A stretch of 63,100 nt of DNA, counting the filler, from Pseudomonadota bacterium (lineage in GTDB: Bacteria > Desulfobacterota > Desulfobacteria > Desulfobacterales > JBDRRP01), in NCBI GenBank assembly GCA_043825735.1. It is 5 parts of 5 records of this genome, joined end to end, with 100 filler letters (N's around TTAATTAATTAA, not from the genome) between each part and the next. Parts side by side here need not be neighbours in the genome. Positions count along the whole stretch, not along the records: positions 59,550 to 63,100 come from JBDRRP010000042.1; 4 more parts are not named here. The stretch is one strand, 5' to 3'. The translations under genes and the position numbers were made by a program. Shown one piece after another: positions 51,339-63,100 of this stretch (the stretch's first letter is position 1; every line of letters begins with the position of its first letter). The notes beneath the pieces were generated by a model. That model ran no database searches. It was not told the DNA's origin and saw only the letters and a list, made by a program, of their open reading frames with translations.

Positions 51339-52452
51339 AGTTGGGGACATCCTTAAATTTTCAACTTCAAGCCTTCAGCTTCTGCAATCTGCCTGCCCCG
51401 CCTGAAGGATATGCTCACCGAAGCGGTAGTGATGCCCAAGCGCCTGGCCATGGCAGTCATGCTCTCGCCCAATTCATTGACCGCCCAGTAACACAGAAGA
51501 CTACGCGCAATCACCTGCTGTCTGAATTTTCCTGGCAACCAGACCTGATCGACGGTGACGCCAAGCACCTGCGCTACCCGGTCGGCCACCTCTGACACAC
51601 TCACGCCGTCAGCTTTCAGGGCATATCTCCTATCCAACGCTTCCTGGCTTTCTGAAAGAATCCGTTCAACAAATTCGCCGTCCCCTAAAATGCGCTCATC
51701 GCTCTTTTCATGCGAATCGGCGGCTCTCAGAGCCTGCACCCCTTCCCAGCCGCCGGCGCTTCTGATGAGGCCACCACCGGTCAAATCTTTTCTTTTTCCC
51801 TGATTGATGCCCTTTTCAACAAAGGCGCGGTAGCGTTGACGGGCCGCGCCTTTCTTTTTACCGAAATTGCGCAGCACTACAGCGGTGTTCTGCCACTCAT
51901 GCTCATGGGTTCCTATGACCACCGAGTGCCCGCAATACGGGTACTCGTCCAATGCCGTCATGTCAGGGACGAGCTTGGCTCTTAACGGATTCAGGTGGAT
52001 GTAGCGCACCAGTTCCATCAGGTAGGCGTCTTCCTGGCATAGGATAGACTTGTATCGGTTCTGGAACAGGTGGCCGGTTCGATGGTGACGGTGGTTGTAG
52101 CTGGTTGCGTGGCCGGTGAGCAGCCGTCGCATCACGGTGGCGATAGGAACGTTGCCGGTGCGAAGCAGCAAATGGAAATGGTTTGGGATCAGCGCCCAGG
52201 CGTAGCATTCGGTACCGGTTTCTTCGAGGATCGCCGCTAATCGGATCAGCAATGAATCCCGATCATGATCATCGTCAAAAATCTTCCGACGCTCAATTCC
52301 CCGGGTGATAATGTGATGAAGAGCGCCAGCGGTATCTATGCGCGCTTTGCGTGGCATTTGTGAAAGGGTAGCAAGGTTGCCAGAAACCGGCAAGTTGAAA
52401 TTTTAAGGGCGTCCCCAACTAAAAAGTTGAAATTTTAAGGGCGTCCCCAACT
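51339..52452 (-). mobile_element. RAYT-like element bounded by 29-bp inverted repeats (one left, two tandem right)
   Basis: AGTTGGGGACATCCTTAAATTTTCAACTT (51339-51367) versus AAGTTGAAATTTTAAGGGCGTCCCCAACT (52392-52420 and 52424-52452); 26/29 inverted match. Confidence 0.75.
51353..52357 (-). CDS. Y1 HUH (RAYT-like) transposase with C-terminal DnaA-C-like HTH
   Basis: MPRKAR..HHIITRG, PNHFHLLL, GHLFQNRYKS, YIHLNP.RA, ILGDGEFVE, AR....Y. Confidence 0.9.
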   Translation of the reverse strand: MPRKARIDTAGALHHIITRGIERRKIFDDDHDRDSLLIRLAAILEETGTECYAWALIPNHFHLLLRTGNVPIATVMRRLLTGHATSYNHRHHRTGHLFQNRYKSILCQEDAYLMELVRYIHLNPLRAKLVPDMTALDEYPYCGHSVVIGTHEHEWQNTAVVLRNFGKKKGAARQRYRAFVEKGINQGKRKDLTGGGLIRSAGGWEGVQALRAADSHEKSDERILGDGEFVERILSESQEALDRRYALKADGVSVSEVADRVAQVLGVTVDQVWLPGKFRQQVIARSLLCYWAVNELGESMTAMARRLGITTASVSISFRRGRQIAEAEGLKLKI

Positions 52453-52500
52453 ACACATCGGCAAAATCATGACGGTCAACAACAGGGTGCTTTTTTTCAT
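52453..52500 (-). pseudogene. 5' stub of an exported-protein gene truncated by the element
   Basis: AAAGGA RBS, then MKKSTLLLTVMILPMC (signal-peptide-like) abutting the repeat; lies 16 nt downstream of the anSME stop. Confidence 0.55.
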
Positions 52501-52516
52501 GGTTATCCTTTCGTTT

Positions 52517-53845
52517 TTAGATGCCTTTTCCATTCGATGTGCCCGGTTCCATTTTGATCACCAGCGGTGCGTCGATGGCGCGCATGATGTGGGCGGCGGG
52601 AAGACCGTGTTCGAGCAGCAGCGCCATGGCCCTGAGATACTTTCGGATGTGGAGAAAAAACTTCTTATACCCGGTGCAAAGGTAATGAAGTCCCGGCTCT
52701 CCATACCAGGACCGGGCAAACCGATGCTTGGGACACCCGCCCTGACAGGCCGCAAGGGCGTCGCATTCCCGGCACCATCTCGGGAGCGCAGACGTTTTGG
52801 CCGCGCCGAAGCCCGATCGCAGGCAATGCGCCACCATCTCGGGCAACGAATCCGTGGCGATGTTCCCCAAGCGGTGCTCAGGGTAGACGCAGTGATCGCA
52901 GGCATAGACATCGCCGTTGTGTTCCATCACCAGCGACCGGCCGCAGTGGGCGGCATGGACGCACACCGGCGAGGGGTTGCCGATCCAGGCATTGAGCGCC
53001 CACTCGAAGTTCATCACGAAAGTCCGGCCCACATCGTTTCGGACCCACGCCTCATAAATGGCGATCAAAAAATCGCCGTAGTCTTCGGCAGCGACGGTCC
53101 AGGGCGTGACTCGGGTCTGCGTTTCCTCCCGGTCCAGGGCCGCTGGGCCGGCAAGGCGAAGCCCCGGGCCGGCGCCTGACGGATCGTCCATCCAACGCTC
53201 GACGATGGGCGCGAACTGGATGTATTCGACACCGCTGTCCTTGAAAAAACGGTAGACATCCAGGGGATGCGCTGCCGTTTCACGGGCCACGCTGGCCAGC
53301 ACGTTAAAGGCGATCTTGTGCTTTTGCAGGAGCCGCAGCCCCCGCATGACCCTGTCGAAGGTTCCGCGGCCGCTGCGGTCGCGGCGATATCGGTCATGGA
53401 TTTCCTTCGGGCCGTCGATGCTGATGCCGACCATGAAATCATGCTTTTTCAAAAACCGGCACCAATCCTCGGTCAGCAGAGTGCCGTTGGTCTGGAGCAC
53501 ATTGCGGATTGTCTTGAACCCCATCCAGGGCTTCTGGAGCGCGATCACCTTTCTGAAAAATGCGATGCCCAGCAGGGTCGGCTCTCCGCCCTGCCATACG
53601 AATTCGACCTCCGGCGTGGGCTGGGATCCAATGTAACCTGATACGAAGGCGGAAAGGACGTCAACCGGCATTCGGAAATTTTCGCCCGGGTCGAACAACG
53701 CGCTCTTTTCGAGGTAGAAGCAGTACTCGCAGGCGAGGTTGCAAACCGGCCCCATGGGTTTTGCCACGACATGGATGCCTGCCGCGGGCCTGTCCGTGGT
53801 CATTACGGCTCCGAGCTTTCCAGTACCGGCTGAGTCTCGTGCCAT
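52517..53845 (-). CDS. Anaerobic sulfatase-maturating radical SAM enzyme (anSME)
   Basis: KPMGPVCNLACEYCFY, WQGGEPTL, QTNGTLL, SPASM cysteines C..CG..CDH..CRECD..CQGGCPKHR. Confidence 0.95.
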   Translation of the reverse strand: MARDSAGTGKLGAVMTTDRPAAGIHVVAKPMGPVCNLACEYCFYLEKSALFDPGENFRMPVDVLSAFVSGYIGSQPTPEVEFVWQGGEPTLLGIAFFRKVIALQKPWMGFKTIRNVLQTNGTLLTEDWCRFLKKHDFMVGISIDGPKEIHDRYRRDRSGRGTFDRVMRGLRLLQKHKIAFNVLASVARETAAHPLDVYRFFKDSGVEYIQFAPIVERWMDDPSGAGPGLRLAGPAALDREETQTRVTPWTVAAEDYGDFLIAIYEAWVRNDVGRTFVMNFEWALNAWIGNPSPVCVHAAHCGRSLVMEHNGDVYACDHCVYPEHRLGNIATDSLPEMVAHCLRSGFGAAKTSALPRWCRECDALAACQGGCPKHRFARSWYGEPGLHYLCTGYKKFFLHIRKYLRAMALLLEHGLPAAHIMRAIDAPLVIKMEPGTSNGKGI

Positions 53846-53959
53846 GGCTCAGTTCCCTTTTTTCCGGCGCTGGTGCGGCCGGACTGATTCCGGGGGTATC
53901 CGCGTCCCGATAAGGGGAGAAAGGACCGTCACTTCGGGAACAGAAACGTCAACTGCCGA

Positions 53960-56380
53960 CTAATTCGATATCGCCATCTTATAGGCGGCTTCCTTGCCGG
54001 CCGCCTCGGCTTGCGCCTTGACCGCTTCTCCCATCGGCTTCACATCCACGACAACCTTGAAGATCTTGCCCGTGAAGGCGTTGTCGCGCTCCTTGTAGTC
54101 GGACGTGACCGGGGTGGCGTCATCCACGCCAACGGCCGCCGTCTCGTCGGCCGAAAAGATCATCGGTTGCGTGCGCTCGATCCGGCCGCTGGCGACTTTC
54201 TCACCGTTGACCAGTATGGTGGCCGTGCCGCCCTTGCCGACCCCGCCGCCGTCATAGTCGAAGTTCATGCGGAGGGTGGCCTTGCCCGGCGCCACCGCCT
54301 TCGGGGCGGCGACCTTGAATTCCTGCAGCCCGATGAAGTTGTAGCTGTACGTCGCCTTGCCGTCCTTGAGATACAGGCTCCAGCCGCCGAACCGTCCGCC
54401 CTGGGCGAGGATCACGCCACTCGCGCCACCCTTGGGGATCTCCACATCCGCCGTGATGGAGAGCGAGCGGTTCTTGATGTTGATAAAGACGTTCTCGCTC
54501 ATCGAGTCCATGCCTTCCGAGAGCGTGAGCGACGTTCGATCGCCCATGAGGTCCGGTCGGCCTGCGATTGCCGCGTTGACGCGTTCAACGACGCGGTCAT
54601 CAATCGGCAGTACGCTGTACTTGATCGCTTCCTCCATGAAGAGGTCCTGCATCTCCTTGAGCTTCTCCGGGTTAGCCGTAGCCAGATCGTTCACGAGGCT
54701 GAAGTCGCTGCGCGTGTCGTAAAGCTCCCACTTGTCATCCAGCAGTTTCCTGCGGGGCTTCATCTCCCACGGCGCCCTGTGCAGGGTGCCGGCAAGCCAG
54801 CCGTCGTTATAGATGGCACGGTTGCCGAACATCTCAAAATACTGGGTCTTGTGGGTGCTCTTGGCTTGAGCATTTTCGAAGCTGTACACCATGCTCACGC
54901 CTTCGATCGGTTCCTGAACCGTACCGTTGACGCTTTTGGGTTCGGGCAGGTTTGCCGCCTCGAGCACGGTGGGGGCCACGTCGATGACGTGGTGCCACTG
55001 CGAGCGGACCTGGTTGGTGGCCTTGATGCCCTTGGGCCAGGAAACGATCATCCCGTTGCGGGTTCCGCCGTAATTGGAGGCAACCTGCTTGGTCCACATG
55101 AACGGCGTATCTCCCGCCACGGCCCAGCCCGCGGCCATGTGCGGATAGGTGGTCGGCCCGCCCCAGTCGTCGTAATGCGTGAGCATGTCTTCAACCGTCT
55201 CCTGAACGCCGTTGAAATAGGTCATTTCACTGAACATGCCGCTCATGCCGCCCTCGGCGCTGGTTCCGTTGTCGCCGAGGATGTAGAAGATCAGGGTGTT
55301 GTCGAGTTGACCGGTTTCGCTGATGGCTTCGAACAACCGGCCGATCTCGTGGTCGCAGTATTCGCCGAAACCGGCATACACTTCCATCTGGCGGGCGAAG
55401 AGCTTCTTCTCGTCCGGGCTCAGCTTGTCCCAATCCTTGATGGCCTCGGGCTTGTCGGCCAGCTTGGTGCCGGCCGGGACCACACCCAGTGCGATCTGTC
55501 TGGCCAGCGTTTCTTCGCGCAGCTTGTCCCAGCCTTTGTCGAATTTGCCCTGATATTTGGCGATCCATTCCTTGGGCACATGATGCGGCGCATGGGTGGC
55601 ACCGGGGGCGAAATACATGAAAAACGGCTTGTCCGGCGTCAGCGCTTTCTGGAACTTCATCCAGGCAATGGCCTGGTCGGTCATGTCGGTCATGAAATTG
55701 TAGCCTTCACGATGCGGCGTGGGGATGCGCGTCATCCCGTCATAGAGGGTGGGATTCCACTGGTCGGTCTCGCCGCCGTAAAAGCCGTAGAACTTGTCAA
55801 AGCCCGAGCGTGTGGGCCAGCGGTCGGTCGGCCCGGAGGGACTGACTTCCCAGGGCGCGGTCTCGTGGTTCTTGCCGAAGAAGCCGGTGCTGTAACCGTT
55901 CAGGCGCAGCATCTCGGCCAGCGGTGCGACGTTGTTCGGCCGCTGTCCCGTGTTGCCAGGAAAAGCCGTGGCCGTTTCGGTGATGCCGCCCATGTTGTTC
56001 ATGTGGTGGTTGCGGCCGGAAAGCAGCGCGGTCCGGGTCGGCGAGCTGACCGCGGTGGTGTGGAAGTGGTTGTAGCGCAGACCGCTGGCGGCGAGTCCCT
56101 CGGCGGCCGGCATGTGCACCGGCCCGCCGAAGGCACTGGGCACGCCGAAGCCCATGTCGTCCACGAGGACGATGAGCACGTTCGGCGCCCCTGCGGGCGT
56201 CTTGACCTCAAAGCGCGGCGGCGGTGTGGCGTCGCGGGCATCGAGAACGGTGCTGTGCGGGTACCTGGGCTCCTGGATCGGCAGTACCGTGCGGTCCATC
56301 GCGGTCTGCGCGGCGGCCGTGGCGGCACAGGCTGTTCCCAGCGCAATACCGAGCATCCCATGGAGTGCCTGCTTTTTCAT
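53960..56380 (-). CDS. Exported arylsulfatase, Ser-type
   Basis: Signal peptide MKKQALHG..., PNVLIVLVDDMG, SSPTRTALLSGR, GKNH, GDNG. Confidence 0.93.
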   Translation of the reverse strand: MKKQALHGMLGIALGTACAATAAAQTAMDRTVLPIQEPRYPHSTVLDARDATPPPRFEVKTPAGAPNVLIVLVDDMGFGVPSAFGGPVHMPAAEGLAASGLRYNHFHTTAVSSPTRTALLSGRNHHMNNMGGITETATAFPGNTGQRPNNVAPLAEMLRLNGYSTGFFGKNHETAPWEVSPSGPTDRWPTRSGFDKFYGFYGGETDQWNPTLYDGMTRIPTPHREGYNFMTDMTDQAIAWMKFQKALTPDKPFFMYFAPGATHAPHHVPKEWIAKYQGKFDKGWDKLREETLARQIALGVVPAGTKLADKPEAIKDWDKLSPDEKKLFARQMEVYAGFGEYCDHEIGRLFEAISETGQLDNTLIFYILGDNGTSAEGGMSGMFSEMTYFNGVQETVEDMLTHYDDWGGPTTYPHMAAGWAVAGDTPFMWTKQVASNYGGTRNGMIVSWPKGIKATNQVRSQWHHVIDVAPTVLEAANLPEPKSVNGTVQEPIEGVSMVYSFENAQAKSTHKTQYFEMFGNRAIYNDGWLAGTLHRAPWEMKPRRKLLDDKWELYDTRSDFSLVNDLATANPEKLKEMQDLFMEEAIKYSVLPIDDRVVERVNAAIAGRPDLMGDRTSLTLSEGMDSMSENVFINIKNRSLSITADVEIPKGGASGVILAQGGRFGGWSLYLKDGKATYSYNFIGLQEFKVAAPKAVAPGKATLRMNFDYDGGGVGKGGTATILVNGEKVASGRIERTQPMIFSADETAAVGVDDATPVTSDYKERDNAFTGKIFKVVVDVKPMGEAVKAQAEAAGKEAAYKMAISN

Positions 56381-56573
56381 GTCATTGGCTCCTTGCTGTG
56401 AAAAGGATTTGAAAACGGCACGGGCGCGCTGCCCACATCTGATGCCGGTGCCTTTATACCCATATCCTGATCGTTTGGCGGGGTCATCCCCCGAAAGTTG
56501 TAAGACGAGTTGTATTTTTTTCCAATCGGGTTCGGGTCCCTGAACGGCGGGATCGGGAAACGGGGCTGGATTT

Positions 56574-59303
56574 TCACAAAATGCCGAGGGCTTTGGCGCC
56601 GATAACCGCCTGGTGGCGATTGTCGACATCCAGTTTACGGTAGATCGTGGACAGGTGACGCTTGACGGTCTCCGGGGAGATGGACAGGCTTTCGGCGATG
56701 TTTTTGTTGCGCGTGCCTTTGGCAAGCATCCTGAGCACTTCGATTTCGCGGTTCGACAGTGGGTCTGTCGACATCTTGTCAGGTGACGCTGCGCCGGGTT
56801 TGTTTCGATCCTCCGCACGACGGCCAAATAGTTCGCTCTCCCCGCCGCCGATGGCCTCGAGGATCTGCCCGGCATATCGCAGCGCGGGATTTTTCTTTAC
56901 GAGGCGGTTCAGGAGATCCGGCATTTCCGGCCCCTGATCCAGGAAGGGGCGGATGAGGCCGCCAGGCTCTGCCAGGGCAAGCGCCTCCGTCAGGGTATTC
57001 AGCGCCTCCGGCAGGTTGCCCTTGAGCGCATAGCGCCGGGCCCGTAAAACGAGGGCATCGATCAGCATGCCGGTACCATGGGTCTTGCGGGAGAAATCGC
57101 ACAGGCGGGCGAGATACCGGTCCGCCTCGCTCAAATCGGCAGGCGCTGCCCGGGCCAGAAGCAGCCGCGCCAGGGTCACCTGAGGGGCGTAGAACCGAAA
57201 TGCGGGCATGAAGGGGACCGAAATAAAATGTCGCATCCAGACTCCAGCCTCGGCGGCATGCCCCTGACGCAGCGCCAGTTCGACCTCAAACGCTTCGCAG
57301 AGCTTCAGCAGATTGGTATTGCCCGCCTCCAGCATAAAATCCGTCACCGCATCGCTGACGGCCCGGGCGGCCTGTTCCCGGCCCATGGCCTGGTAGGTCA
57401 ACGCAAGCGCGAACGCACCGTGGCAGTAGTTGATGACACTCGGCACGGCCAGTTCTCCGAAGACGGGTTCCAGGAAACGCTGGGCCAGATCCAATTCGTT
57501 TTGCTGGTAATGGGTGATGCCGGCAAAATATCGGCCGACGGCGACCGATTCAGTCAGATTGTTCCTTTGGCCGTGTTTCAGGAACTGGGCGCTGACCTGT
57601 TTCAGGTGCTGTAAATCGGCAGCGATCCAATCGGAAAAACACAGGGCCGCCAGCGACATGCTTTTATTGCGGGCGTTCGATGCGTCTTCCTGTTCGAGCG
57701 CCGCATACACCACCCGCCGGGCGCCTCCCAGCTCGCCACGCATCTGGAGCGCCGCTGCCAGGATGATTAGGGCCATGCCGCGCGGACTGCAATGGCTGGC
57801 CGGGAGTCTCGTCAAGGCTTCCCTGGCCGTGGTTTCGGCAAGCGCACCCTGGGCGGCGATGAAGTGCTGGAAACTTCTTAATGCCTGCAGTTCCCCCCAT
57901 AAGACGCTGCCGGCGGCGCTGGCTTTGTCGGCGGCGGCGACGAAATTTTCGATGCGGTCCAGAACTTCGGCCAACTCCGGATACCGCGCCTGCCGATGCA
58001 ATAGCCAGGCACTGGCCAACAACAATTCGGGCCGACCCTGAACATATTCGTGCGGAAATCGCGTTAGGCAGCGGTTCAGGTGGTACCAGTCGCCCCGGCT
58101 CATGATGTCCTGGCGATATCGCTCGACAATCTCTGCGGCAACCGCCAAGGCATCTCCCTCGAGGGCGATCGAGAGCGCCTCATCGACATGGCCGTTTTCA
58201 GCAAACCAGGTGCCGGCCCGTTCGTACAGGAGGGTGATTTCTTGCGCAGTGAACCGCTCTTTGAGATGGCGCTTGAGCATTTTTTGGAACAGATGGTGCC
58301 AGCGAAACCATTTCTGCTCGTCATCCAAAGGGACGACAAACAGGTTGGCATTTTCCAGCAGCGATAAAAAGCTGCGGCCGTCCATACTGCTGCCGCCGGG
58401 TGTTGAATCTGGACAGCAGACGGCATCGCAGAGCTGCGCGTTGAAGCGATTTAAAATGGCGCTTTTCAACATACACGCCTGTATGGGCAGCGGATATTGG
58501 GAGAGGATTTCGGAAACGAAGTACGCCATGACATAGCGGTTTTCCAGCGGCAGGCCGGCCAACAGGCACTTGATGTCCTTTTGATCCATCATCGACAGGG
58601 CGGCCAGGCGCAGGCCGGTCACCCATCCTTCGGTTTTTTCCTCCAGGATGGCGGCGACGTCGCCGTCCACGGGTGCCCCTGTCGTCTGCTGCAGGAAAGC
58701 GAGGGTTTCCTCCAGTGAAAAGCGCAGGTCCCGGGTCCGGATCTCGAGCATTTGCCCCTTGGCGCGCAAAGCCGTCAGCGGCAGCGGCGGATCCCGCCGG
58801 CCGATCAGAACAAGATGTATGACGGCGGAAGGGTGACGCAGGAGATCGGCAAGCAGTTCGTGTACTTTATTGTCCCGGATCCGGTGGTAGTCGTCCAGCA
58901 CCAGGATCAACGACTTTTCGAACCGGTCCAACTCGTTGATCAGCGTCCTTGCCAGTACTGAAACCTCCGGTAATTGCTCAACCCCGAGCATGGAAAGGGT
59001 TTCACCGCAGGCGCCGGGGAAGACGTCTTGGATCGCGGCGACCAGATAGGAGAGAAAGCCCCTGAGATCGTTGTCGTTCTCGTCCAGAGACACCCATGTG
59101 CCGGGGGTGTCGCAGGCCGCCAGCCAGCAGCTCACCAACGTGCTCTTACCATAGCCGGCGGGGGCAGAAACCAGGGTCAGCGGTCGATCCTGCTGCCGGG
59201 CGAGGCGGTTCAGCAGGTCGCCGCGATGCACATGGTCGCTGGCCACCGGCGGCCGGTGCAACTTGGTGCGGATGATCGGTTCGATGTTGTGTTTTTTTGT
59301 CAC
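56574..59303 (-). CDS. MalT-like ATP-dependent LuxR-family transcriptional regulator
   Basis: TKL.RP, SAPAGYGKSTL, LVLDDYH, TEGW..GL.L, FRWHHLF, C-terminal LSNREIEVL..TVKRHL..IYRKL. Confidence 0.95.
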   Translation of the reverse strand: MTKKHNIEPIIRTKLHRPPVASDHVHRGDLLNRLARQQDRPLTLVSAPAGYGKSTLVSCWLAACDTPGTWVSLDENDNDLRGFLSYLVAAIQDVFPGACGETLSMLGVEQLPEVSVLARTLINELDRFEKSLILVLDDYHRIRDNKVHELLADLLRHPSAVIHLVLIGRRDPPLPLTALRAKGQMLEIRTRDLRFSLEETLAFLQQTTGAPVDGDVAAILEEKTEGWVTGLRLAALSMMDQKDIKCLLAGLPLENRYVMAYFVSEILSQYPLPIQACMLKSAILNRFNAQLCDAVCCPDSTPGGSSMDGRSFLSLLENANLFVVPLDDEQKWFRWHHLFQKMLKRHLKERFTAQEITLLYERAGTWFAENGHVDEALSIALEGDALAVAAEIVERYRQDIMSRGDWYHLNRCLTRFPHEYVQGRPELLLASAWLLHRQARYPELAEVLDRIENFVAAADKASAAGSVLWGELQALRSFQHFIAAQGALAETTAREALTRLPASHCSPRGMALIILAAALQMRGELGGARRVVYAALEQEDASNARNKSMSLAALCFSDWIAADLQHLKQVSAQFLKHGQRNNLTESVAVGRYFAGITHYQQNELDLAQRFLEPVFGELAVPSVINYCHGAFALALTYQAMGREQAARAVSDAVTDFMLEAGNTNLLKLCEAFEVELALRQGHAAEAGVWMRHFISVPFMPAFRFYAPQVTLARLLLARAAPADLSEADRYLARLCDFSRKTHGTGMLIDALVLRARRYALKGNLPEALNTLTEALALAEPGGLIRPFLDQGPEMPDLLNRLVKKNPALRYAGQILEAIGGGESELFGRRAEDRNKPGAASPDKMSTDPLSNREIEVLRMLAKGTRNKNIAESLSISPETVKRHLSTIYRKLDVDNRHQAVIGAKALGIL

Positions 59304-59449
59304 GGGGTTATGATATTCAATTTTGGATAGGCGCCGGCGCCGGTATCAAGAACGGCTGCGTAATGAGTTGTAGTGCGATAACAGGTACTTTTGTATCACA
59401 AAATAAGATGCGGCCCAATTGTAAAACACCGATCGATATACGATGGGGT

Positions 59450-59549
59450 NNNNNNNNNNNNNNNNNNNNNNNNNNNNNNNNNNNNNNNNNNNNTTAATTA
59501 ATTAANNNNNNNNNNNNNNNNNNNNNNNNNNNNNNNNNNNNNNNNNNNN
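59450..59549. other. Artificial contig spacer
   Basis: N-run, TTAATTAATTAA, N-run. Confidence 0.98.
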
Positions 59550-59721
59550 CCATCCCGGCCATTACAGCATATCCAACCGTGTCCATGACCCCGTTACGCT
59601 CGAAAGGCACCGGCCAGCAGACTCCACCCTTCATTGAGCATTCCATAGGGTCATGATCGTCAAAGAAAAGCAGTGTGGTCTTGCGCTCTGTGTTATAGTT
59701 CTTGTGGATCGGCCTTATCAT
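59550..59721 (-). CDS. Hypothetical phage protein (5' part)
   Basis: GGAG before ATG 59721, MIRPIHKNY...; open to the contig end. Confidence 0.45.
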
Positions 59722-60096
59722 AAACCCGCGCTCCAGTGAATGAACACCGCAATCCCGACTACGAGGGCAACCGCACACAACGCCCCTATGATTTCGTTGC
59801 CATTTGTACGCCGGTGCCCACTGCTCACCAGTACGTTATGGTTTGCTACGCCTACCATCAGCATATCCTTCTAGCAAAAAGGCAATCTGCCAGTAATAGC
59901 GACATGATACCAAGTCAAACCGGAAACACATCCAATAATATACATAACCCATGGGAGAAACCGCTTGGCAAAATCGCTATCGGGGTCATTGTAATACTGC
60001 TTGGTGCTGCAACTATTTGGATTATAAACCATTATTTCACCATCAATTTAAGGTGACCATCGCCATGCGTTGCTTCTTCGACTTTGCAGGCATATC

Positions 60097-60378
60097 TTAC
60101 GCCTTTCCTATCGTTCTGATGTCAGCCAATGTAGGCCGGATGATTTGGTCTTTTACAAGATTCAGCCGATCATCAAGATTGCCACTTTTCGACATCTCAA
60201 GAAAAAACCCCGCAACCCGCTTTTGTCCGGCGGCAATAACATCCATTGCCGCTATGAAATTATCGGGAAACCCGATCACCTCAACCCTGCCGTCCGGAAA
60301 TACCTGAATCCGTACCTCAAATTTCGGATTGTTCTCAATAGCCATACGTCGAAGCTCCTTTGCCTTCTTGCCGTTCAC
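60097..60378 (-). CDS. Hypothetical phage protein (93 aa)
   Basis: GTGA overlap with the terL stop; MNGKKAKELRR start. Confidence 0.7.
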   Translation of the reverse strand: MNGKKAKELRRMAIENNPKFEVRIQVFPDGRVEVIGFPDNFIAAMDVIAAGQKRVAGFFLEMSKSGNLDDRLNLVKDQIIRPTLADIRTIGKA

Positions 60379-62423
60379 ATCCGCGCCCCTTCCAAGTCCA
60401 AAGGGTCAAATGCAGGGTCAAACACCATCAATTCAGTCATGCCCCACACGAACGCATCCAACCTGTTGGGCGACGAATCGCCAGGGGTCCATAAACAGTT
60501 GTGTACCAATATCTCGTTTGCGAAATATTCGTGTGGATCTTGGGTGTGTAAGTTAAAAACGGGAGTGGAAGGACAATCAATAATGTCGATACTTTGTATA
60601 GTATCTTCTTCGGCAAATTCTTTCACAAAACATGGCCCTTGCTCCGGTACTCTCAAACTCAGTTCCGCATCCGGTGCAAATGACTTTGTGAGGTTTTTTT
60701 GTTTTCCAGTGGTTCGTCCTAAAATCTGAAAGGCGCTTTCGCTCTTCTTCAGTCCACCTATGCCTAGGGTGATGTGAGACATGTCTCTTCCGTGTCGCCG
60801 CCTCAAGATTCGAGATATTATAATTGAGCTTATTGCCATCCTTATGATGAACATCAGCGCTACTTGAAATCTTTCCGTTGTGGTGCTCCCAAACAGATCT
60901 ATGTAGCAATTTTCCTTCTCTATTTTTGTAATACCCATCCTTTGTGACAAACCATCTCTGTCCATACTCAACAATGGGTTTTCCATATTTGTAGACCCCA
61001 ATGGGCTTGTACGCCATAATCTATTCACCTCCAATATATTGCCTTTCTCAAGGCTTCTGGCCTCAACAAAGCCACTGATTTTATTATATACTGGATGATG
61101 AATGGTTGTCAATAGGTTCCGGCCATTTCTAGTGCTTATTTTTACTAATTTATCAACAAATCCCGTACATCCCGCATTGACAACCCTCACAAATCCTTTG
61201 CGAGTTAAAACAAAGTCATCTGTAGTAACAAATTGGATTGGCTTCTTACCATATTGTGTAGTAACCCAAGTATCAGCCACAACACACAATTCATCCTCTA
61301 ATTTCGGGAAGTTACCCACATGATGGATAAGCCCCTTCTCCGCCTTGGCTGATATCGGCTCGGCCCGGACATACTTCCCCCGGGATGCGTGAACCAGCTT
61401 AACCGGAACGTCCGAGTCCACCTGATGAATCGTAATTTCGACCATTTCCCCGCCCTGATTCTTTTCGGCCACGATACAGTCGGCACTGAAATTGTGATAC
61501 GCAGACACCGCAGATTTGGCCCAGACCAACGGCGAGCCTTCCGTGGTCCTGTCGGCAACCAGAAAAGCATGATCGCCCGCTGAACCACAGACCATTACCC
61601 CGGCCTCATCGCCGGCGGCGGTTGTAGCAGGGTCTACAGCAACCACGACACGATGGAAGTCCGGTGCAGACAGAACCCGGTTATCGTCTATTATTTTGCG
61701 AGTCCACAGCGCCCCTGGTGCTTCGTTAACGTCCTCGGCCTGTATTTCCATACGGTATGCCAAAGATGTCATGTCGGATGCAATCTCGTCCAACGCGGCC
61801 CGGCTCAGGTGTGGATTGTCCATGCTCGTGAAATGAAACGTCGCCCATCGGTCGGACCCAGATCCCATTAACTCAGTCGCCCGCTTGAACATCTTGGCCG
61901 CGTGCTGTGGGTCATCGGCCTTTGACACGGACCGCGACTTTAGGCTCGGCGGCGTGTAGATGAAAACAGCATCACCGTCATTGTCCAGGAGCATGGGCGC
62001 CCCGACCGTGTTCCATGTTTCCTCGTTCATCAGTTGAAACTCATCAAGAATAAGCACATCGGCATAATCACCGCGCAGGCTGTTTGCGTTCCATGCGGTT
62101 TTGGCCTTCAATCTCTGCTCTGTGCCTTGTAGTTCTATGAAGTGCTCGCTTTCATTCTTCCGGAACATCCCCAGGCTGATCGGCCCGGATAGCGCCCGGA
62201 TCACCGTTGTCCAAAATCGCCCAACCTGCTCAAGGGTAGGCGCTGCGTACAGGACCCGATGGCCATGAAGAAACTGTTCGGTGCCGTAGATTGACATTCC
62301 GACCGTTTTCCCGCCCCGACGGCCCGCCCGGATGACTTTGCGCTTGGCCGGGTGCCGGATGAACTCCCTTTGCTTAGGGTGCGGTCTTGGCAATGTAACT
62401 CGAATTTCCTCATTATCGGTCAT
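60375..62423 (-). CDS. terL: Terminase large subunit containing an intein
   Basis: PHPKQ, RAGRRGGKT, LRG..ILDE, VAVDPA, EKNQGG, RAEP, SPNRLDAFVW; 682-aa precursor, 419 aa after splicing. Confidence 0.93.
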   Translation of the reverse strand: MTDNEEIRVTLPRPHPKQREFIRHPAKRKVIRAGRRGGKTVGMSIYGTEQFLHGHRVLYAAPTLEQVGRFWTTVIRALSGPISLGMFRKNESEHFIELQGTEQRLKAKTAWNANSLRGDYADVLILDEFQLMNEETWNTVGAPMLLDNDGDAVFIYTPPSLKSRSVSKADDPQHAAKMFKRATELMGSGSDRWATFHFTSMDNPHLSRAALDEIASDMTSLAYRMEIQAEDVNEAPGALWTRKIIDDNRVLSAPDFHRVVVAVDPATTAAGDEAGVMVCGSAGDHAFLVADRTTEGSPLVWAKSAVSAYHNFSADCIVAEKNQGGEMVEITIHQVDSDVPVKLVHASRGKYVRAEPISAKAEKGLIHHVGNFPKLEDELCVVADTWVTTQYGKKPIQFVTTDDFVLTRKGFVRVVNAGCTGFVDKLVKISTRNGRNLLTTIHHPVYNKISGFVEARSLEKGNILEVNRLWRTSPLGSTNMENPLLSMDRDGLSQRMGITKIEKENCYIDLFGSTTTERFQVALMFIIRMAISSIIISRILRRRHGRDMSHITLGIGGLKKSESAFQILGRTTGKQKNLTKSFAPDAELSLRVPEQGPCFVKEFAEEDTIQSIDIIDCPSTPVFNLHTQDPHEYFANEILVHNCLWTPGDSSPNRLDAFVWGMTELMVFDPAFDPLDLEGARM
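60577..61017 (-). CDS. HNH homing endonuclease with C-terminal zinc finger, nested out of frame within the intein
   Basis: DGYY, LHRSVWEHHNG.I, VHHKDGNKLNYNISNLE, H...H, CTGC...FCERIC; own GGAGGTGA RBS. Confidence 0.88.
   Translation of the reverse strand: MAYKPIGVYKYGKPIVEYGQRWFVTKDGYYKNREGKLLHRSVWEHHNGKISSSADVHHKDGNKLNYNISNLEAATRKRHVSHHPRHRWTEEERKRLSDFRTNHWKTKKPHKVICTGCGTEFESTGARAMFCERICRRRYYTKYRHY
61025..61032 (-). promoter_or_regulatory. Internal Shine-Dalgarno site for the nested HNH gene
   Basis: GGAGGTGA, then 7 nt (ATAGATT), then ATG 61017. Confidence 0.8.
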
Positions 62424-62494
62424 ACCTTCCTATTCACCCGCAACAGATCGTTCAACCTGAGCGATCTCAGGAAGCCGGTTTTCATGCAAAAGTC

Positions 62495-62944
62495 TCATTT
62501 GTCATCCTCGTAGCAGATCACGATTTTTTTGGGAACGGTCAGGTCGATATCCTTCTTATCCCGTAGCCCCAAATCTCTCGCTATTATCAGTGGGTTAAGC
62601 ATTTCGGCAGAAGCTCCTTCAAATTTTTGCCGACGAATTGCCTCCTCTGCTCGCATGCAGATTGGTATATAATCTTCTCTAACTCGGTATAACTGCCAGG
62701 CTTCTTGTGAGATGCCGATGAACATGCACATCCCGCCGATTGTCATGACGCGCATTTTAGGGACGTACTTAATTTTAGCCTCGCCTTGGAATTTTACGAG
62801 TTCGGCAGCGCGGAGAGGATTGTTTTCATTCCAGTCAAAATACTGTTGGCAGGCATCCCAGAGTAACTCGGGTGATTCAAAAATTGGTTTCCGTCCGTGG
62901 GATGATCTCGCCTCCCAGAATCTATTCCCTTTTGGAGCAGCCAT
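62495..62944 (-). CDS. terS: Terminase small subunit, P22 gp3-like
   Basis: MAAPKGNRFWEARSSHGRKPIF..PE.LW.AC..YF.W, K.R.MT..G, QKFEGA..LNP.IIARDLGL. Confidence 0.92.
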   Translation of the reverse strand: MAAPKGNRFWEARSSHGRKPIFESPELLWDACQQYFDWNENNPLRAAELVKFQGEAKIKYVPKMRVMTIGGMCMFIGISQEAWQLYRVREDYIPICMRAEEAIRRQKFEGASAEMLNPLIIARDLGLRDKKDIDLTVPKKIVICYEDDK

Positions 62945-63100
62945 CAGAACACCGCCTTTAGGATGATGATGCCGAAAATGGTTTTGAGTATCTGCATAAT
63001 GTTTATCTCCCTGCCTTTGATGCTGGGAATGTATTCTCAGCTATTTGTTCGATGCTGATGCGGTATGCTTCCATATCATCGATGATGGTTTGTTTTGATC

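Follow-up and report, generated by a model that had tools for sequence, protein, structure and literature searches.

The window analysed here, a joined stretch of 63,100 nucleotides, contains a phage terminase large-subunit gene (terL) interrupted by an intein that we interpret as a mobile, dual-coding element holding a separate I-HmuI-like HNH endonuclease gene, an explanation to which we give, taken whole, a probability of roughly three in four. Read in frame, the precursor would splice out 263 residues, including a linker that is junk as protein, to leave a 419-aa TerL, while the same DNA read in a second frame would be a separate HNH gene translated from its own Shine-Dalgarno (SD) site. 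The HNH protein would most likely nick terL copies that have no intein, close to the insertion site; on repair from an intein-plus genome, the element would be copied together with some flanking DNA. Nicking and homing are proposed because of the patchy distribution of the intein, the finding of one and the same intein in exteins that differ, and a divergent flank at the insertion site. A free-standing, terL-adjacent HNH family would have moved into TerL inteins, or out of them, on more than one occasion, with stops in the intein frame giving a split intein and a stop-free intein frame giving the nested form.

The terL locus and its intein

The locus lies on a lone contig of 3551 bp (window positions 59,550-63,100; JBDRRP010000042.1), and since this is a separate contig in the concatenated window, neither linkage to the bacterial genes at its left nor a host can be assigned. 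The GC content of the contig is 0.49 compared to 0.575 for the genome, its tetranucleotide correlation of 0.54 falls between the first and fifth percentiles of genome pieces, and comparison with the rest of the genome gave a single 18-mer match and nothing more; the contig may be mis-binned. The terL precursor matched Terminase_6C in Pfam (E = 1.2e-11) and phrog_2 (E = 1.3e-30), and the insertion point of the intein lies in the nuclease domain of TerL. The acidic motif of the C-extein was kept in 77 intein-free terL relatives and presumably supplies a catalytic residue, as we take from knowledge of the terminase family.

Table 1 Features of the terL locus, in window coordinates
Feature	Position	Strand	Basis or remark
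terS, P22 gp3-like terminase small subunit	62495..62944	-	Pfam GP3_package E 1.9e-21; phrog_606 E 1.2e-51
terL precursor, 682 aa (379 aa N-extein, 263 aa intein, 40 aa C-extein)	60375..62423	-	ORF list
N-extein flank at insertion site, 28 nt, 13 differences from co-occurring empty allele	61287..61314	-	hand count
Contiguous class-1-type intein, 263 aa (C1, block B T61-x-x-H64, terminal His-Asn, Cys+1)	60498..61286	-	
Predicted sigma70-type promoter, perfect consensus TTGACA-N18-TATAAT	61083..61112	-	intein codons 59-68 (block B)
Shine-Dalgarno GGAGGTGA, 7 nt ahead of HNH ATG, predicted unpaired	61025..61032	-	duplex -10.6 kcal/mol
HNH_3 (I-HmuI-like) endonuclease gene, 146 aa, C-terminal Cys4 ribbon	60577..61017	-	-1 frame of intein linker
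Linker (HNH DNA read in intein frame), stop-free, no recognisable fold	60577..61017	-	predicted model
C-extein, 40 aa, with final conserved acidic motif of RNase H-like nuclease domain	60375..60497	-	

The initial annotation had described an intein with normal splicing blocks whose in-frame linker resembles no endonuclease, and both descriptions hold. The class 1 motifs were all present (N-terminal Cys, block B TxxH, C-terminal His-Asn and Cys at +1), with C1, H64 and N263 invariant among the 25 inteins compared. The splicing domain of the predicted model had pLDDT values of 92-98, and its N- and C-terminal parts formed a HINT fold with 46 structure matches at E ≤ 0.001, led by Ssp DnaB and gp41-1. 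Exactly the 263 intein residues are absent from P0003, a 419-aa intein-free TerL of the same cluster. Profile scores were below the curated cut-offs for Pfam Intein_splicing (E = 4.7e-7; 30.2 bits compared to 35.8) and for TIGR01445 (20 compared to 24.5). From the motifs, the fold and the empty allele we infer that the precursor is spliced to the 419-aa TerL. The linker was modelled with pLDDT below 50 over residues 93-134 and 166-220, and a Pfam search found no nuclease domain in the intein frame, HNH_3 being matched in the -1 frame only. A canonical endonuclease-containing intein was rejected, as there is no in-frame nuclease domain and no indel in the contigs, and a fractured gene (split intein) was rejected for the window, as there are 0 stops in the intein frame.

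The bases were checked against assembled contigs from two studies, one of whose runs, but not both studies, may be the source of the window. Two overlapping contigs of run X1 (study P1) covered 60431-60608 with 0 differences and 60580-61344 with 2 substitutions and 0 gaps, one contig of run X2 (study P2) covered 60580-61316 with 0 differences and 0 gaps, and no indels were listed between 59737 and 62987 in contigs of these runs. The intein of P0002, a separate 682-aa record, is identical to that of the window. The intact HNH ORF is thus out of frame with the intein without compensating indels, as first proposed, since the same bases occur in contigs of two studies.

The nested HNH gene and its expression signals

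Translation in the -1 frame relative to the intein (frame 3) gave a product that matched Pfam HNH_3 (E = 6.8e-15; 54.9 bits compared to a cut-off of 24.8) and phrog_15471 (E = 2.6e-17); this match and the ORF list agree with the intact 146-aa HNH plus zinc-finger ORF of the initial annotation. The HNH stop lies 79 nt upstream of the intein end, about five codons ahead of block F. Every catalytic-motif residue and all four ribbon cysteines are intact, and H57, H58, N70, H79 and H83 were invariant across 12 HNH sequences; we take their roles towards metal and base from the alignment to 1u3e and from general knowledge of the fold. That structure, I-HmuI, was the best PDB match (sequence E = 8.7e-5, structure E = 0.013), and Foldseek with the HNH model returned nothing at E ≤ 0.001. 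Both frames are stop-free, as had been noted: synonymous recoding of the HNH gene predicted 2.9 intein-frame stops and 0 were seen (P = 0.014, for this copy alone).

The SD reported 7 nt before the HNH ATG is present as GGAGGTGA (read from 61032 to 61025), and its duplex was stronger than at all 18 off-frame ATGs of the window terL. Duplexes of -6 kcal/mol or below preceded 10 of 21 nested HNHs compared to 8.7% of 298 control ATGs (p = 0.007), so that SD-like sites are enriched among the homologues. The other 11 had no SD at this threshold, and some HNHs without a strong SD may be leaderless. The perfect promoter consensus was the sole match in the 63.1 kb, occurred in 0 of 100 shuffles, and ends its -10 box 65 nt ahead of the HNH start. 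In the 110 nt upstream, 7 of 25 nested HNHs had a promoter site scoring 10/12 or better, compared to 0 of 171 control windows (0/25 antisense, 0/25 at intein starts and 0/121 in HNH windows) and to 1.8% of shuffles, the rows of this test and of the SD test including relatives (L006/L189; L002/L179/window). A 10/12 site was absent in 18 of the 25, and L002 and L179, the closest same-site relatives, have an SD and a promoter match at only 8 and 7 of 12 positions. In this copy, the HNH gene is probably transcribed from the sigma70 promoter in block B. With an SD and a probable promoter of its own, the HNH gene would not have to await the late expression of terminase. The initial annotation had not described an internal promoter.

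Other signals were sought around the gene. A hairpin between promoter and SD was no more stable than shuffles (z = -0.95), so no regulatory structure is claimed, and an Rfam search of the contig gave nothing at E ≤ 1, which leaves neither an intron nor a known RNA element. A search of 60300-61600 for terminator-like sites was negative. From RNA run X8 came one empty-allele piece and otherwise low-depth pieces that lie outside the intein, all without bearing on HNH expression.

Relatives, mobility and competing explanations

A census with one short peptide pattern, in which inteins were sought around the HNH matches listed, returned at least 32 distinct inteins, with the HNH in the -1 frame in 29, in the other shifted frame in 0, and in frame in 3. 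The three are inteins of RNR and PolA, and their HNH matches are weaker, at 32-40 bits compared to 60-115 otherwise. Terminase matches were obtained for 23 of the 24 host genes scanned (14 in Pfam, 9 in PHROGs); the family uses at least four TerL insertion sites, most of the inteins found being in the nuclease domain, and inteins with HNH_3 and a Cys4 ribbon occur in phages of several phyla. An open intein frame was seen in 27 of the 28 complete -1 inteins, against 1.6-8.1 stops expected there from synonymous recoding. Eight free-standing kin of the same HNH architecture carried 3-9 stops when read in that frame and 4-33 when read in the other; by these statistics, the -1 phase is where the HNH family naturally has fewest stops, and it also matches the ATGA stop/start overlap of a split relative.

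Selection was assessed by identity and codon-position counts per frame. The HNH frame was more conserved than the linker frame in 11/11 divergent pairs, with third positions most variable, and between the window and L002 identity was 59% in the HNH frame and 35% in the linker frame. These comparisons of sequence indicate that purifying selection acts on the HNH frame and is relaxed on the stop-free linker, and they support the dual-coding reading of the initial annotation, the out-of-frame ORF being conserved in divergent relatives. That annotation had also expected standard pipelines to miss the nuclease, and this proved so: four GenBank phages in which annotation gives TerL alone carry the same nested layout (11 of the 24 listed records were examined, PAE1 and Shemara being classed by annotation alone), and the five HNH products looked up in a 15-billion-protein collection were all absent, the window's TerL being present. 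A search of viral contigs with the intein-frame protein gave no match; the HNH-frame query retrieved the family.

Free-standing kin adjoin terL or terS in many phages. Split forms were found in L165 and Lactobacillus phage CL2, where a stop breaks the intein into two genes, and both group with the nested L163 by splicing domain (support 98/96). For the HNH genes, one common origin of the nested forms was rejected (29 nested against 8 terL-adjacent free rows; AU p = 3.6e-5); the HNH tree is a quick one and poorly resolved, with 24 of its 47 inner branches open, and it indicates no direction. Little of the splicing-domain tree is resolved, and it does not place the events in order.

Among the best 80 terL relatives, 77 are empty at this site, and both run X1 and run X2 contain the empty allele alongside the intein-plus one. 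Between P0001 and P0002, 12 of 419 extein residues and 0 of 263 intein residues differ (p = 0.005), although 8 of the 12 differences fall within the first 64 residues, which makes the contrast weaker near the insertion site. Two flank residues are common to P0001 and P0002 and absent from the empty P0003. The 28-nt flank differs from the empty allele at 13/28 positions compared to 72/1539 in the flanks (Fisher p = 2.7e-10), mostly synonymously, and has a GC content of 0.36 compared to 0.56 in the extein. This tract is likely the result of co-conversion, and could instead reflect target-site divergence or resistance in the empty allele. It also means that the empty junction first proposed needs revision, as the natural empty allele differs at these 13 of 28 nt just 5' of the site. 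Site-specific nicking of empty terL is the activity predicted for the HNH protein.

An assembly or sequencing artefact masking an ordinary in-frame HNH intein would fit a 3.5-kb contig of a binned genome whose bases were checked on contigs, but is largely refuted and hardly credible, as two studies give the same bases, the P0002 intein is identical, and the layout recurs in at least 28 other distinct inteins besides the four GenBank phages. An unlikely but more serious possibility is that the HNH, once active, is now silent or dead in this copy, with the element heading towards a mini-intein and spread by ordinary recombination. Relatives do decay, L004 having its HNH frame, though not its intein frame, cut by a nonsense codon and the L002 group having lost one ribbon cysteine, and the window HNH is short (146 aa with one Cys4, compared to kin of 190-230 aa with two). 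Against such a relic stand the intact catalytic and cysteine residues, the SD and promoter at consensus, the identical intein in two differing exteins, and the third-position bias relative to L002 and L179.

Two further accounts of the HNH frame are each very improbable. Frameshifting by -1 is common in phages, and a fusion made by -1 ribosomal frameshifting from the terL frame, without initiation of its own, would agree with the -1 phase of all 29 cases among the matches listed; yet an in-frame stop lies two codons ahead of the HNH ATG, no slippery heptamer was found in 61040-60880, the SD and start codon occur at the same place in many relatives, and stop-codon statistics already account for the phase. 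The HNH could also be a terminase cofactor that has been domesticated, in the manner of HK97 gp74, and is retained beside or inside terL for packaging, as the position of the free-standing kin would allow and as the terminase-aiding HNH proteins in the accessible part of PMC11855218 illustrate. A gp74-type cofactor was rejected, however, as it is not a constant companion: 77 of the best 80 terL relatives are without the intein, with no forward-strand HNH-profile match in their examined loci. Moreover, an empty TerL 98% identical exists, and the enzyme is I-HmuI-like. The mobile, dual-coding intein therefore remains our preferred reading.

Wider reading and relation to described systems

Beyond this explanation, we tentatively consider a gene-within-gene cassette (promoter in block B, SD and HNH) for an early or prophage nuclease that serves both homing and damage to rivals, in a family of interconverting states. 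If so, transcription from a host sigma70 promoter would allow nuclease synthesis early in infection or from a prophage, well ahead of terminase, and with a promoter inside the splicing domain homing would no longer be tied to late gene expression, with three codes on one DNA stretch: splicing protein, nuclease gene and expression signals. Besides driving homing, the nuclease could then harm the packaging gene of rival phages that have no intein, in the way that an intron HNH damages a competing phage's gene in the available portion of PMC11620839. Free, split and nested states of the TerL-associated HNH family would interconvert repeatedly, and the proposed route of endonuclease gain by inteins would become directly testable. 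The series of free-standing, split and nested forms of this HNH is what the models of Dassa 2009 and Gosselin 2025, in the parts available, predict for endonuclease acquisition, and a single family now allows a test of it. With at least 29 distinct inteins and four GenBank phages, the layout, so far described as rare, becomes a common hidden class in phage terminases. As these inteins resemble degenerate or mini ones and protein databases do not contain their nucleases, counts of mobile compared to dead inteins are probably wrong.

The initial annotation knew of no description of this architecture, but out-of-frame intein endonucleases have already been reported (10.1101/2025.01.02.630785, in its accessible text; 10.64898/2026.09.14.751524). 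Gosselin, Arsenault and Gogarten (10.1101/2025.01.02.630785) describe, in the portion available, actinophage inteins with an EndoVII-like HEN in frame 3 on the same strand; as in the window, the intein is contiguous and the in-frame linker open and without fold. Many of their non-canonical cases are likewise in TerL, a free-standing HEN origin is proposed and annotation misses are predicted. There, HNH inteins are listed as in-frame and the out-of-frame enzyme is EndoVII-like, unlike the HNH_3 with Cys4 ribbon of the window, and the available main text has 0 matches for promoter, ribosome, TJE1 or Tetrasphaera. Phillips, DeSimone and Gogarten (10.64898/2026.09.14.751524) report a cyanobacterial dnaX intein with a LAGLIDADG HE in the +2 frame, crediting Gorbalenya 1998. 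It shares with the window an overlapping frame, a putative SD, purifying selection in the endonuclease frame, and filled and empty alleles together in one population. The dnaX case differs in its LAGLIDADG enzyme, chromosomal host gene and single site, with no HE ancestor found and no promoter described, whereas free-standing and split relatives and at least four TerL sites were found for the window family.

The ShiLan element of Arsenault et al. 2025 (PMC11855218, in part) also hides an HNH with zinc fingers in frame 3 of a frame-preserving insert that keeps the host frame open. That part describes no splicing domain, no detectable RBS and a non-essential methylase host, unlike the full HINT domain, SD and essential host gene here. 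In the accessible part of PMC2677866 (2009) the enzymes are GIY-YIG and Vsr-like, with HNH only predicted, while the window intein frame is unbroken. The mycobacteriophage TerL inteins of Kelley et al. 2016 (PMC5050341, available portion), whose splicing is needed for function and which cut empty alleles, have the same TerL host, but lie in the ATPase domain with the endonuclease within the intein protein. Our literature searches, with subscription journals and bioRxiv supplements largely outside their reach, found no paper on an out-of-frame HNH in TerL inteins, and, with subscription journals mostly outside, none describing a promoter inside an intein. What appears new here is the HNH_3/TerL family and the promoter in block B, the out-of-frame layout itself being known.

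The window enzyme (HNH_3/phrog_15471) is unlike the LAGLIDADG, EndoVII-like or Vsr-like enzymes of the described cases. I-HmuI is intron-encoded and nicks. It shares with the window HNH a common HNH_3 core (PDB 1U3E), the core alone being alignable, and the window HNH's C-terminal portion, a helix followed by the Cys4 ribbon, is unlike that of I-HmuI.

The terminase intein and its second reading frame

The large terminase (TerL) carries an insert with intein splicing motifs, and exactly these 263 residues are missing from its 419-aa cluster mate, the intein-free record P0003. The splicing domain was predicted at pLDDT 92–98, against values under 50 for most of the linker between the splicing blocks, and has 46 matches to solved inteins at E ≤ 0.001. 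Curated intein profiles matched the insert with scores below their cut-offs. The intein is lower in GC than the gene (0.41 vs 0.56). In the predicted HNH protein encoded in the -1 frame of the linker, the four ribbon cysteines are present and H57, H58, N70, H79, and H83 are invariant across 12 aligned sequences; its best PDB match is I-HmuI (profile E 8.7e-5; fold only E 0.013). Contigs, as opposed to reads, from two studies reproduced the intein without a gap. The -1 ORF with its HNH_3 match and these contigs bear out the initial annotation in that the intein with an HNH gene in a second frame is real, and there is hardly any chance that it is an artefact.

Features of the phage packaging fragment (positions in the window)
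Feature	Coordinates	Strand	Remarks
terS	62944-62495	minus	
terL, 682 aa	62423-60375	minus	
Intein insert in TerL, 263 aa	61286-60498	minus	Cys1, block B T61-x-x-H64, terminal His-Asn, Cys+1
Sigma70 consensus TTGACA-N18-TATAAT	61112-61083	minus	12/12; within block B codons
HNH ORF, 146 aa	61017-60577	minus	-1 frame of intein linker; Pfam HNH_3 E 6.8e-15
Small ORF downstream of terL	60097-60378	minus	no Pfam or PHROG match
Small ORF downstream of terL	59550-59778	minus	no Pfam or PHROG match

Selection on both frames, expression signals and proposed function

The HNH frame was more conserved than the linker frame in all divergent pairs (11/11; two near-identical pairs were uninformative), with the third positions of HNH codons the most variable; between the window and the relative locus L002, identity was 59% in the HNH frame and 35% in the linker frame. 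Synonymous recoding predicted 1.6–8.1 stops in the intein frame, and none was observed in 27 of 28 cases (P 0.014 for the window). Free-standing relatives (n = 8) have 3–9 stops in the corresponding frame and 4–33 in the other. Since recoding predicts stops and free-standing kin have them, the open state of the intein frame is actively maintained; since those kin have fewer stops in the -1-type frame, the uniform -1 phase partly reflects codon statistics and is not proof of a single origin. In L004, the HNH was lost through a stop and the intein frame was retained. Conserved codon pairs of the splicing motifs, for example Tyr-Asp or the terminal His-Asn, often furnish the HNH stop when translated in the -1 frame, as do block F/G codons of L005, L006, L087, and L090.

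The Shine-Dalgarno (SD) sequence of the window HNH pairs at -10.6 kcal/mol. With HNH starts chosen blind to the SD, a value of -6 or better was found in 10 of 21 elements and missing in 11; among 298 extein ATGs outside the reading frame, the rate was 8.7% (p = 0.007). The 12/12 sigma70 match is unique in the 63.1 kb and was found in none of 100 shuffles. Among 25 nested HNH starts, 7 have a site of at least 10/12 no further than 110 nt upstream (antisense, 0/25; intein starts, 0/25; HNH windows, 0/121; shuffles, 1.8%), in a tally where some rows are related and the sites, as consensus matches, are predicted promoters. Three of the seven score 12/12, as does a fourth in the partial locus L187, outside the 25. 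The sites fall 21–65 nt upstream of the HNH start at varying intein codons, indicating that no single protein motif generates them; a point against a promoter is that the two closest relatives score 8 and 7. Four loci with no SD (L104, L184, L259, L180) have a -10-like hexamer ~6 nt before the HNH ATG, a position that would fit leaderless transcripts.

Both frames of the element are open and under selection, its motifs are intact, it has SD and promoter consensus sequences, and its distribution is patchy. We put at roughly three in four the probability that splicing would restore TerL, whose 40-aa C-extein is presumably needed for the nuclease site, and that the HNH would be made separately from TerL and nick empty terL, driving copying of the element. 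That the element is a relic appears improbable. Expression of the HNH as a frameshift fusion is very unlikely, as there is a stop two codons before the HNH ATG and no slippery site in 61040-60880, and a role as packaging cofactor is given equally little weight.

Distribution, probable mobility and origin

HNH pattern searches returned at least 257 partly redundant loci. Home-made profiles placed both intein parts near 46 HNH matches, representing 32 distinct inteins among the matches listed; in these the HNH lies in the -1 frame in 29, in the other shifted frame in none, and in frame in 3, the last hosted by RNR and PolA and scoring 32–40 bits vs 60–115. Of the 29, the locus end truncates one and L165 is split; the intein frame is open in the remaining 27, that of the window among them. 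Among 24 hosts scanned, 14 had terminase matches in Pfam and 9 more in PHROGs, one partial locus having neither. The inteins listed occupy at least four TerL sites by flanking motifs, mostly in the nuclease domain. Four GenBank phages among 11 of 24 records fetched have the nested layout annotated as TerL only (Tetrasphaera TJE1, Acinetobacter Highwayman, Clostridium phiCDHM19, and Rhodobacteraceae LS06-2018-MD07). All five nested products looked up were absent from a collection of 15 billion proteins, although the wider HNH family numbers 1036 representatives at E ≤ 1e-30. A near copy of the phiCDHM19 element in Clostridium phage phiCD119 (L262, 778-2595) has frameshifts, from old sequencing error or natural decay, and is annotated as two genes. 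Two TerL genes (L009:614-3955, L184:3-3338) each host an in-frame LAGLIDADG intein in their ATPase part together with a second intein, of the nested-HNH kind, in their nuclease part.

Among the 80 best terL relatives, the site is empty in 77 (up to 75% identity), the other three being one near-identical group at 64%, and sequencing runs X1 and X2, from different studies, hold filled and empty alleles side by side. The intein-bearing records P0001 and P0002 differ at 12/419 extein residues, of which 8 fall within the first 64, and at 0/263 in the intein (p = 0.005); to either side of the site they share a residue not found in P0003. Over 28 nt just 5′ of the site there are 13 differences from the empty allele, against 72/1539 in the flanks. 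These data fit a recent homing event accompanied by co-conversion, the alternative to co-conversion being resistance of the empty allele.

The same HNH family stands free directly beside terL or terS in L105, L164, L017, L084-L086, L160, and L193 and in phages PAE1, EauM-23, Shemara, and BP10. In L165 (1074-3314) and Lactobacillus phage CL2 (L264, 506-2734), an HNH gene of this family separates the two halves of a naturally split intein. The N-part stop and HNH start of L165 overlap as ATGA, and the C-terminal intein half and TerL end of CL2 are unannotated; both are candidate new trans-splicing inteins. In Brochothrix phage BL3 (L267, 727-2607), TerL and gp3 carry the N- and C-terminal intein parts as two CDS with no HNH core match, which looks like a degenerate split form. 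A single nested-HNH clade was rejected (AU p = 3.6e-5; 29 vs 8 rows), nested and free HNHs being mixed, and both split inteins grouped by splicing domain with nested L163 (support 98/96). The states therefore interconverted more than once, whatever the order of events.

Related systems and the contig of the fragment

The architecture, taken as undescribed in the initial annotation, has precedents in print. Gosselin et al. (10.1101/2025.01.02.630785) describe actinophage inteins with an EndoVII-like endonuclease in frame 3 and, in the accessible part of that source, give HNH solely as in-frame; Phillips et al. (10.64898/2026.09.14.751524) describe a +2-frame LAGLIDADG in dnaX with a putative SD and frame-specific dN/dS. 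The window element would work like both and belongs to neither type because its enzyme differs. In the available portions of two further sources, ShiLan (PMC11855218) has an out-of-frame HNH and, unlike the window, no splicing domain, and Dassa et al. (PMC2677866) present split forms in which the enzymes are GIY-YIG and Vsr. A literature search covering preprint main texts and few subscription journals found no report of TerL inteins whose HNH is out of frame, nor of a promoter within an intein. What this leaves as new is the breadth of the hidden HNH/TerL family, the internal predicted promoter, and the series of free, split, and nested forms.

The packaging fragment is a contig by itself (G000:C42, 3551 bp), which N gaps connect to the rest of the window; it has no portal gene and may be mis-binned. 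N runs and a short linker at 59449-59549 mark the contig join in this concatenation. Just downstream of terL, 59795-60238 is a swappable region, 442 letters being replaced by 315 others in related phages from runs X1 and X6. The stretch at 51353-59303 is an unrelated bacterial contig in which a REP-associated-type transposase, a radical SAM sulfatase maturase, a sulfatase, and a MalT-like regulator were recognized by eye.
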